IMG/VR virus record: IMGVR_UViG_3300045988_010479
Reading direction: 5' to 3' (one strand)
DNA length: 6,008 nt
From: a virus
Position numbers and translations under genes: made by a program. Below are positions 4,805-6,008 of the stretch, piece after piece. Below the pieces are notes generated by a model, which saw nothing but the letters and a program-made list of their open reading frames with translations, ran no database searches and had not been told where the DNA came from. The number at the start of each line of letters is the position of its first letter. Position 1 is the stretch's first letter.

Positions 4805-4975
4805 TTAAAAATCAAATGTTTGGTCTATTCTGTAGAGCGTTACTTTTATTACGTTTGCTTCTGCTCTACATTTTTTCGCTTTTTCTTTTGCGTCTCTGGT
4901 TGTTTCTATCCACATCTTTTGTTCTTTTGTACCGTTTTCGAAATATACTCTTACCAAAAATTTGTACTGTCTCAT
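4805..4975 (-). CDS. Hypothetical protein, 56 aa from ATG 4975 (MRQYKFLVRVYFENGTKEQKMWIETTRDAKEKAKKCRAEANVIKVTLYRIDQTFDF). The track ORF is extended to GTG 5035 (76 aa).
   Basis: ATG 4975-4973 with GAAGGGAAGGT 7 nt upstream. The 5' extension to 5035 would cover a consensus extended -10 promoter, so the shorter form is preferred. First gene after the large non-coding region. Stop TAA 4807-4805. Confidence 0.45.
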   Translation of the reverse strand: MRQYKFLVRVYFENGTKEQKMWIETTRDAKEKAKKCRAEANVIKVTLYRIDQTFDF

Positions 4976-5006
4976 GGTTCTTACCTTCCCTTCTTTTTCT
5001 GATTCT

Positions 5007-5023
5007 ATTATACCATATGTCAA
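5007..5023 (-). promoter_or_regulatory. Candidate sigma-70-type extended -10 promoter driving the accessory operon (minus strand: TTGACA TATGG TATAAT, i.e. TGGTATAAT)
   Basis: Minus-strand TATAAT at 5012-5007 preceded by TGG (TGnTATAAT extended -10 consensus). A perfect TTGACA hexamer at 5023-5018 is only 5 bp away, too close to act as -35 for this -10. Predicted TSS ~5000, giving a ~25-nt leader with an SD before ATG 4975. Confidence 0.45.
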
Positions 5024-5059
5024 TAGGCTTTTCACTGATTTTCCTGTTTTGTAATAAAA

Positions 5060-5080
5060 TTGTAACCTTCTCTTGTAACC
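5060..5080. repeat. Direct repeat TTGTAACC x2 (5060-5067, 5073-5080) plus a related TTGTAAT (5049-5055), 35-75 bp upstream of the candidate promoter
   Basis: Read directly from the sequence: tttTGTAATaaaaTTGTAACCttctcTTGTAACCcgg. Confidence 0.5.
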
Positions 5081-5104
5081 CGGTTTTGCTCCTTTGTTTT
5101 GAAT

Positions 5105-5118
5105 GGCGCTTTAGCGCC
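5105..5118. repeat. Near-palindrome GGCGCTTTAGCGCC. Its core CGCTTTAGCG (5107-5116) is repeated directly at 5322-5331, bracketing the TTCAACA arrays.
   Basis: Exact 10-bp match at the two positions. First copy forms a 5-6-bp GC stem. Confidence 0.5.
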
Positions 5119-5180
5119 TTGCCGTGTGTAGCGCATGCGGAACTCGGCTAAATCCATTCCTTTTTAGCGCTGTGCGCGTT

Positions 5181-5300
5181 TTCAACACTTTCAACACTTT
5201 CAACACTTTCAACAGGTTTTCAACAAAATGTTGCACAATGATTTTCGTTATTTTGACGAACTTTCAACATTTCAACAAGTTTTCAACAAAACTTTCAACA
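5181..5300. repeat. Iteron-like arrays of TTCAACA (minus strand TGTTGAA), nine same-orientation copies. Array A: 5181, 5190, 5199, 5208 (exact 9-bp period, CTTTCAACA x4) plus 5219. Array B: 5263, 5271, 5282, 5294. Degenerate TTGCACA at 5231 and TTCAAC at 5348.
   Basis: Read directly from the sequence. All copies are non-coding and sit between the accessory-operon promoter and the rep 3' end. Confidence 0.85.
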
Positions 5301-5400
5301 TTGTTTTTTGCTTTTTATTTACGCTTTAGCGTTAAATTTTAGCACTTTTCAACTTTTCCACTACCTCTACTACTACTCCTACAACAAGTTAATATTATAT

Positions 5401-5444
5401 TGCGCGTGCGCGCGTGCGCGCTATCGCGCGTGCGTGCACGTGCG
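5401..5444. repeat. Alternating purine-pyrimidine (CG/TG) tract, Z-DNA-prone: TGCGCGTGCGCGCGTGCGCGC-TAT-CGCGCGTGCGTGCACGTGCG
   Basis: A 21-nt and a 20-nt perfectly alternating Pu/Py run separated by TAT. About 75% GC, embedded in AT-rich non-coding DNA (TTAATATTATAT immediately upstream). Internal GCGCGTGCGCGC repeats. Confidence 0.8.
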
Positions 5445-5458
5445 AATTAGATTACCTG

Positions 5459-5476
5459 ATAGACTGAATAGACTGA
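5459..5476. repeat. Tandem 9-bp repeat ATAGACTGA x2 (context cTGATAGACTGAATAGACTGATACATAG)
   Basis: Exact tandem copies at 5459-5467 and 5468-5476. Confidence 0.7.
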
Positions 5477-5500
5477 TACATAGAGCTTTTAAACGACAAT

Positions 5501-5532
5501 AGCCCAGTACCTTACTTGATAGGTACTGGGCT
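5501..5532. promoter_or_regulatory. Perfect 12-bp-stem hairpin (AGCCCAGTACCT / AGGTACTGGGCT) with 8-nt loop TACTTGAT, 20-50 nt 3' of the rep stop on the coding strand. Candidate rep transcription terminator and/or replication-origin stem-loop.
   Basis: Exact inverted repeat read from the sequence. A second small hairpin GACACTgttaaAGTGTC (5541-5557) covers the rep stop codon. Confidence 0.6.
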
Positions 5533-5551
5533 AGGTGACACTATGACACTG

Positions 5552-6008
5552 TTAAAGTGTCCCCCTCTTCTTCATCTGCTTCTTTATCACTCTCTCTTTC
5601 GTTTTACACTGTTCTGCAAAGTTTGCATTTTCATACTTAAGTCGGTTCTCTGCGATTGCTGCTGCTTGTCTGTTCTGCTTAATTCTCCACAATCTTTGTG
5701 GGTTTTCAGCTTCCATCATTTTTTCATAATAGCGCGGAATTTGTGCGTGTTTGCCGTTTGTGCATTGGATGTAGCCTTGTCTCCAGATTTCTTCTTTGTG
5801 CTTTTTGTAATAGTTATCTCCTAGGCCTGGCTTAAGGCTCATACGTGCAAAAGGTTTTTGCTGCCCTAGTTCATAGTATGCGTTTGCTTTCTGGCCGTCA
5901 ATTTCGTACATTTTTTTTGTAACGTATCCTGCAACATATCTATATGTCTCTGGCACTGCTTGTGCTATCTGTATTTGACCCATGTCCCATAGTTCTGATA
6001 GCCATTTA
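5552..6008 (-). CDS. VP4: Replication initiation protein Rep (VP4), C-terminal part (143 aa from the internal Met plus upstream codons), truncated by the window end. Upstream part is 100-662 on the circle.
   Basis: ORF track 5552..5983 (-). Contains RYVAGYVTKKMYEID (RCR motif III with two catalytic Tyr, near-identical to phiX174 gpA YVAKYVNKK) at 5912-5938. Stop TAA at 5552-5554. The frame stays open from 5984 to 6008, consistent with continuation at 75-662. Confidence 0.9.
   Translation of the reverse strand, partial: KWLSELWDMGQIQIAQAVPETYRYVAGYVTKKMYEIDGQKANAYYELGQQKPFARMSLKPGLGDNYYKKHKEEIWRQGYIQCTNGKHAQIPRYYEKMMEAENPQRLWRIKQNRQAAAIAENRLKYENANFAEQCKTKERVIKKQMKKRGTL
5910..6008. repeat. Exact 99-bp direct repeat of bases 1-99 (terminal redundancy from wrapping a circular 5909-bp genome, or the start of a second tandem unit)
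   Basis: Bases 1-99 and 5910-6008 are identical base for base. The repeat runs to the window end, so its true extent is unknown. Confidence 0.95.

Follow-up and report, generated by a model that had tools for sequence, protein, structure and literature searches.

The stretch of DNA analyzed here (6,008 nt; referred to below as the window) begins and ends with the same 99 nt (positions 1–99 and 5910–6008) and thus closes into a circle, giving a complete genome of 5,909 nt. It is the genome of a gut gokushovirus, the nearest GenBank records being gokushoviruses from human, pig and monkey gut with identities of 74–85%. The coding genes lie exclusively on the minus strand throughout the window (Table 1), and the sole large non-coding region, at approximately 4976–5551, reaches from the VP4 stop to a promoter-like site on the minus strand and contains the repeats that are the subject of this analysis.

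Table 1. Genes and sequence features of the circular gokushovirus genome (coordinates are those of the window).
Feature	Position	Strand	Remarks
VP1, major capsid protein		minus	Phage_F, E 3e-141
VP2, pilot protein		minus	
VP3, scaffold protein; VP5; peptidase-M15 endolysin		minus	
VP4 (Rep), 339 aa		minus	REP_ORF2-G2P; spans the circle junction
Promoter-like site, GTGAAA-17-TATAAT with TG	5007–5035	minus	strong; upstream of the small genes
Array A, five DnaA-box-like 9-mers	5179–5225	plus	TTTTCAACA at 5179 and 5217; CTTTCAACA at 5188, 5197 and 5206 (contiguous, 9-nt period)
Box-like 9-mer TGTTGCACA in the inter-array spacer	5229–5237	plus	one mismatch to TTWTNCACA
Array B, four DnaA-box-like 9-mers	5261–5300	plus	CTTTCAACA at 5261 and 5292; ATTTCAACA at 5269; TTTTCAACA at 5280; positions kept in relatives
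Proximal tandem box pair, TTTTCAACT and TTTTCCACT	5346–5362	plus	8-nt period; beside the trios
Spacer ACCT, proximal box to trios	5363–5366	plus	4 nt; CCCC or TACC in hosts
DnaA-trio-like run CTA CTA CTA CTC CTA, CTACTACTACTCCTA	5367–5381	plus	minus strand 3'-GAT GAT GAT GAG GAT-5'
Phage-specific conserved motif CTACAACAAGTTA	5379–5391	plus	minus strand TAACTTGTTGTAG; at least 90% conserved; conservation falls right after
AT-rich stretch AACAAGTTAATATTATATTG, candidate unwinding element	5383–5402		from nearest-neighbour energies
GC tract, alternating purine-pyrimidine, 43 nt	5402–5444		borders the AT-rich end of the module
Perfect 13-bp hairpin after the VP4 stop	5500–5533		terminator-like on the minus strand; loop TACTTGAT on the plus strand

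Several other elements flank the repeats within the non-coding region. Between the promoter-like site and the arrays, a conserved GC-rich segment (5085–5178) carries two small hairpins (GGCGC-TTTA-GCGCC and GCGC-TGT-GCGC); this segment has no Rfam match, and positions 5040–5180 fold no better than shuffled sequence. Another subclade has a different conserved segment at the same position. At the other end, the GC tract is quasi-palindromic and Z-DNA-prone, is variable in sequence and is missing in one relative (L063), and an exact tandem of two ATAGACTGA units (5459–5476) lies between it and the hairpin. The GC tract and the hairpin hold fixed positions relative to the genes, the GC tract lying outside the movable cassette described below.

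A first-pass annotation of this DNA had noted nine copies of TTCAACA in the same orientation, arranged in two arrays, and its coordinates and spacings proved exact on recounting. The window contains ten exact copies of the heptamer, nine on the plus strand within 5181–5300 and the tenth on the minus strand at 1320–1326, whereas dinucleotide-preserving shuffles contain a mean of 1.18 copies and a maximum of 5 (0/200 reach 10). The heptamers of array A start at 5181, 5190, 5199, 5208 and 5219 (spacings of 9, 9, 9 and 11) and those of array B at 5263, 5271, 5282 and 5294 (spacings of 8, 11 and 12); Tandem Repeats Finder reports the first part as 3.9 copies of a perfect 9-nt unit, TTTCAACAC, at 5180–5214. 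Taken with their flanks, the heptamers become 9-mers of the form (T/C)TTTCAACA, a single base away from TTWTNCACA, the relaxed consensus for DnaA boxes (PMC7561715). Beyond these nine, there are three degenerate sites in the same orientation, one between the arrays (TGTTGCACA, kept in relatives as ...gtgcaaca...) and two further along at 5346–5354 (TTTTCAACT) and 5354–5362 (TTTTCCACT). Eleven sites lie within one mismatch of TTTTCAACA, with 10/11 of them inside 5179–5354, and the 12 box-like sites in 184 bp constitute a box cluster as it has been defined (at least three boxes with a mean distance below 100 bp; PMC7561715). The word also has the form of a species-specific box, namely an asymmetric 9-mer with no more than two mismatches, and its probable identity as the box of the host is read from its position, as set out below.

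Beside the arrays, every relative has the same conserved plus-strand run, TTTTCAAC TTTTCCAC T ACCT CTACTACTACTCCTA CAACAAGTTAATATTATATT, in which a proximal pair of boxes, a short spacer and a run of trios follow one another. The proximal pair corresponds to the pair TTCAACAgtTTCAACA of host origins and to boxes 6/7 of Bacillus subtilis. Read on the minus strand, the run beyond the spacer resembles the DnaA-trio consensus 3'-GAT-5' (PMC8287927), of which CACCTACTACTATTACTACTATGA is the form in Clostridioides difficile (PMC7561715). The AT-rich stretch directly beyond the trios has the lowest duplex stability of any 20-bp segment in 4951–5620, although the AT-rich part of the phage sequences is short, at approximately 16–25 bp, compared with at least 50 bp in host origins. 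Across 104 distinct fragments, the proximal boxes and the trios are at least 90% conserved. In the rule given for the bacterial basal unwinding system (BUS), a box with up to two mismatches stands 0–16 nt from three or more NAN trios, often with a second box in tandem (PMC8287927); here, TTTTCCACT stands 4 nt from five trios and has TTTTCAACT as its tandem box. A BUS-like signature of this kind occurs once in the genome and in none of 2,000 shuffles. When folded as single strands, both strands of the module score no better than shuffled sequence (z = −0.77 and −0.11); action of the sites in duplex DNA is therefore most likely, and the first-pass suggestion of a complementary-strand origin is not borne out. 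An Rfam search of the module gave no family match at E values up to 1, and a structured RNA was rejected on that basis.

The same words were then sought in bacterial chromosomes by scanning one genome per species for three TGTTGAA words 1–5 nt apart, which returned at least 120 loci, none of those listed encoding phage proteins. At least four of these loci have their arrays between dnaA and dnaN (recognized by the Pfam families Bac_DnaA, Bac_DnaA_C and DNA_pol3_beta), in the spacer that is the canonical origin-unwinding region of Firmicutes. All four are metagenome-derived (two Oscillospiraceae MAGs, one Ruminococcus MAG and one assembly of an uncultured Clostridiales isolate), and as they are among the matches listed, other taxa may share the TTTTCAACA box. 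Box density in the four dnaA–dnaN spacers is 23–32 per kb versus approximately 1 per kb elsewhere in the same loci, and 67/80 of the host boxes point towards dnaN. The host origins use the same words as the phage at the same 9–11 bp spacings, the TTTTCAACA-type word being dominant in the four spacers, and the host sites (AAnTTTTCAACA, n = 80) have A at the variable position in 84% of cases and C in 16%, a pattern that recurs in the phage sites of six divergent clades (89% A, 11% C). The correspondence extends to the layout: the host origins read ...TTCAACAgtTTCAACA-cccc-CTACTACTACTACTA-AT-rich and the phage reads ...TTTTCAACTTTTCCACT-acct-CTACTACTACTCCTA-CAACAAGTTAATATTATATT, so that parts, order, orientation and spacing all agree. 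Sequence matches to the four host origins do not go beyond the level of motifs, with a maximum of 29 nt and no long homology, and recent capture of host DNA was rejected on this ground. From its position, its spacing and its interchange with TTTTCCACA, we infer that TTTTCAACA is a host DnaA box. By this box variant, the predicted host of the phage is a Firmicute of the order Oscillospirales, which agrees with, and narrows, the Firmicute host proposed in the first-pass annotation; a binding platform for a host factor, there listed as an alternative for the repeats, would likewise fit DnaA. As a separate observation, boxes are few upstream of dnaA in the Oscillospirales loci, which suggests a single-part origin.

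The arrays are a lasting property of this group of phages. In a set of 101 genomes (the window and 100 relatives, picked by nucleotide or Rep similarity with the motif not used), 96 have four or more such sites clustered at this place in the non-coding region; a random scatter of the heptamer among relatives, which the first-pass annotation had named as the outcome that would count against it, was not what the motif search found. The usual spacing pattern among the relatives is 12, 11, 8, 44, 11, 9, 9. Copy number, raised in the same annotation as a possible variable, does differ, if modestly, between relatives: the 9-nt tandem has 2, 3 or 4 units by genome and exact heptamers number from 2 to 10 per genome. 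The word itself is far more constant. Within the modules of the 96 genomes the heptamer varies solely at position 4, as either TTCAACA or TTCCACA, and among the 761 TGTNGAA module sites N is T in 679 and G in 82, with C and A in 0. Some sites in relatives are replaced by TGTGGAA, the canonical box core, and perfect TTATCCACA boxes stand inside the arrays of several clades. Divergent microviruses were also uncovered when viral contigs were searched for the array pattern; their VP4 and VP1 proteins are only 35–57% and 38–55% identical to those of the window, with VP4 values of 36%, 45% and 55% among them, and these viruses keep the words, the proximal pair, the GC spacer and the CTA trios.

In 8 of approximately 96 unbiased relatives (L003, L022, L063, L070, L077, L078, L086 and L095), and in the whole of a distant clade (that of L239), the entire cassette, comprising the AT-rich end, the motif, the trios and all boxes, is reversed with respect to the genes. 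These inverted copies form a diverged lineage that is closer to the cassette of another clade; an in-place invertible switch was therefore rejected, and exchange between phages by recombination is likelier than a flip. Occurrence as a unit in either orientation fits a self-contained origin cassette, and would be less easily explained by a promoter-proximal regulator.

Two candidate nick sites lie near the repeats, one in the phage-specific motif and the other in the loop of the hairpin (5513–5520). In every clade the trios run directly into the motif CTACAACAAGTTA, which is kept across Rep identities of 35–95% and is absent from host origins; CTACAACAAGTTA/TAACTTGTTGTAG is a candidate recognition or nick site for Rep. 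Its minus strand has AACTTG in common with the origin core of phiX174 and SpV4, and on its plus strand CAAC...G is followed by AT-rich DNA, likewise as in a phiX174-type origin. SpV4 carries AACTTGATA, and the origin of phiX174 itself, inside gene A, is CAACTTG^ATATTAATAAC; phiX-type origins are not known to contain DnaA sites. The hairpin loop, TACTTGAT(A) on the plus strand and antisense to the genes (also given as TACTTGATA), matches the nick consensus CTTG^ATA known from phiX174, pC194 and SpV4. Hairpins of other clades have wholly different stems around a loop that retains (T/C)CTTGATA or CCTTGTC(T)A, and the hairpin may be more than a terminator.

The reading that we favor, at a probability of roughly 70%, is that the TTCAACA heptamers are the cores of host-type DnaA boxes (TTTTCAACA alongside TTTTCCACA) and that, together with the proximal pair, the spacer, the trios and the AT-rich stretch, they make up a compact, host-type module for DnaA-dependent unwinding. 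Boxes of this kind in a phage would suggest that the host initiator, besides the phage's own Rep, is used to open the phage DNA. The substrate would be the double-stranded replicative form, on which host DnaA-ATP would first fill both upstream arrays and the proximal pair; DnaA would then oligomerize from the proximal boxes onto the trio strand, which is the minus, coding strand, and would melt the adjacent AT-rich DNA. The opened region, with CTACAACAAGTTA/TAACTTGTTGTAG, would be the entry point for replication, and the opening would either provide Rep (VP4) with a single-stranded substrate or load the host helicase, or both. The sequences themselves establish the anatomy of the module, its conservation, its agreement in layout with host origins and its failure to covary with Rep; DnaA binding, unwinding and the use made of the opening are predicted from the sequence and from its likeness to bacterial origins.

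Several considerations count against an origin of this type. Microviruses start replication by Rep nicking and are not known to require DnaA; neither a box cluster nor trios occur in Chp2, phiMH2K and SpV4, the classical gokushoviruses. Furthermore, if the nick site of Rep lies inside the module, its two orientations would cause opposite strands to be packaged in different phages, which would be unprecedented in the family. Finally, a role in titrating DnaA or in regulation would use the same boxes, and this last objection leads to the most serious of the competing explanations.

According to that explanation, which we regard as unlikely yet better placed than any other rival, the sites titrate DnaA away from the host origin or sense DnaA-ATP without opening the phage DNA. 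Identical boxes would serve such a purpose, and a multicopy replicative form with approximately 12 boxes would be an effective sink; datA and the 'inc' effect exerted by origin fragments on multicopy plasmids are known parallels. Clusters of DnaA boxes outside oriC are documented to regulate initiation in B. subtilis (PMC3245932). A sink, however, requires no trios, no fixed 4-nt spacer, no oriented proximal pair and no adjacent least-stable duplex, and it is in these parts that the module is most conserved. The strong conservation of trios, spacer and box orientation makes unwinding the likelier function, with titration or sensing as a less probable one.

The first-pass annotation had compared the repeats with the iterons that bind Rep. 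Its view of them as protein-binding repeats of the kind found at replication origins agrees with our results, whereas their assignment to Rep/VP4 does not, and we consider it very improbable that VP4 is the initiator that binds the repeats and is thereby placed at a nearby nick site. The location is as this model would have it, in the sole large non-coding region and beside both the phage-specific motif and a hairpin loop resembling CTTG^ATA. Yet the repeat word stays constant while VP4 diverges to 35% identity, and this lack of covariation over VP4 identities of 35–95% is the ground on which Rep iterons were rejected. The same word, with the same spacing and partner elements, moreover fills the dnaA–dnaN spacer at bacterial chromosomal origins that encode no VP4, and its sole variant is the canonical DnaA-box core, TTCCACA.

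More doubtful still is silencing of the phage in sporulating or stressed hosts by Spo0A, acting at 0A boxes, or by another host transcription factor, a possibility floated in the first-pass annotation because TGTTGAA is one base off TGTCGAA. Many Oscillospirales sporulate, and in the origin of B. subtilis the two kinds of box, 0A and DnaA, overlap. Nevertheless, the core TGNCGAA requires C at the critical position, and C is found there in 0/761 of the TGTNGAA module sites from the 96 genomes, a count on which Spo0A boxes were rejected; nor are the distance and orientation of the module conserved relative to the promoter-like site at 5007–5035. A few TGTCGAA words were seen by eye at the module edge in two relatives (L005 and L009).

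We give equally little credence to a functionless passenger captured from a host origin, to a single-strand origin or to a coding repeat (plus-strand ORF 5124–5342), for the host matches do reach 28–29 nt and a 9-nt period does preserve a reading frame, but the depth of conservation across divergent phages, coupled with matches to hosts that go no further than motifs and show no long homology, argues against a recent passenger fragment, the folds of both strands (z values above) do not exceed those of shuffles, and no frame is open in 17/89 genomes, spacings of 8, 11 and 12 nt would interrupt any frame and ORF 5124–5342 has no family match; the single-strand origin and the coding repeat were both rejected on these results. 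Other candidates were set aside on comparison with their defining parts: theta-plasmid iterons are 17–22-bp repeats served by a RepA-type initiator, and here the units are 9-mers and no such initiator is found among the phage ORFs; for plasmid centromere repeats (parC/parS), no ORF matches a partition-protein family of the ParR/ParB type; and a by-eye comparison for a dif/Xer-like site beside the module gave no convincing match.

For the reading as a DnaA-dependent unwinding module, the closest known counterpart is the BUS of bacterial oriC (incC of B. subtilis, oriC2 of C. difficile), in which boxes 6/7, a GC spacer, DnaA-trios and AT-rich DNA follow one another in the dnaA–dnaN spacer. The phage module is similarly built, with tandem asymmetric 9-mers pointing to 3'-GAT-5' trios 4 nt away, then the least stable duplex, and with more boxes of the same orientation upstream; its box words are identical to those of the Oscillospirales origins. 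Unlike the BUS, it resides in a 5.9-kb single-stranded-DNA phage rather than beside dnaA, its AT-rich part is much shorter, its trios are fused to CTACAACAAGTTA, and the whole unit measures approximately 225 bp and occurs in either orientation. Mobile elements with host DnaA sites are familiar: the origins of P1 (oriR), pSC101, F and RK2 carry one to a few host DnaA boxes that assist an initiator encoded by the element, and the injection-stop region of T5-like phages contains eight DnaA boxes, described as 'reminiscent of oriC', which are thought to act in injection. In contrast to the phage module, none of these plasmid or T5 replicons has been described with trios or with the full BUS layout. 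The iterons of CRESS-DNA viruses and RCR plasmids resemble the phage repeats in being short, directly repeated and close to the origin of a small circular Rep-encoding element, but those iterons covary with Rep and are absent from host chromosomes, and neither is true of the phage repeats. Canonical tandem DnaA boxes (TTATCCACA, 0–5 nt apart, TTWTCCACA) are common in viral contigs, being present in at least 120 (L337–L456), and no microvirus is among the matches listed. A literature search found no report linking Microviridae, gokushoviruses or microviruses with DnaA boxes or oriC, and a search for the 9-mer returned unrelated primer sequences only. DnaA boxes in plasmid and phage replicons are thus already known, and what is new here is a candidate for the full host-type unwinding module in a single-stranded-DNA phage.

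A stronger proposal, to which we assign somewhat less than even odds, is that the host origin has been rebuilt, as a working miniature, within one clade of gut gokushoviruses, and that host DnaA there fires or licenses replication of the phage. If so, a DnaA-dependent step would be added to a family thought to rely on Rep nicking alone, and phage replication would be tied to the initiation potential of the host. The replicative form could also be maintained as an episome resembling a minichromosome, so that long-term carriage in the gut without integration would be explained, and the box variant would allow the host (Oscillospirales) to be read from the phage sequence alone, as a sequence-only host marker. 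Gokushovirus replication origins are unmapped and these gut microviruses are uncultured and without known hosts; the module, if it works, would offer a concrete, testable origin and a new route by which a Rep-encoding single-stranded-DNA virus melts its origin, through a borrowed host initiator. On the bacterial side, the comparison points to an undescribed DnaA-box variant, TTTTCAACA, and to an apparently single-part dnaA–dnaN origin in Oscillospirales.

Two minor observations concern individual sequences. In one contig (L018, 1–1134 and 6289–8781), a close relative of the phage is joined to tailed-phage genes (portal, Mu-F-like and terminase), with the junction exactly where the origin module should start; either the assembly is chimeric or the contig represents a genuine recombinant. 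Among the host loci, the putative recognition helix of DnaA reads GRDHSTIVYA in L142 (4963–6477), L147 (3466–4824) and L174 (242–1633) and NRDHSTIVYS in L125 (2330–3733), where the canonical helix is GRDHTTV(L/I)HA, and these substitutions coincide with the TTTTCAACA box variant.
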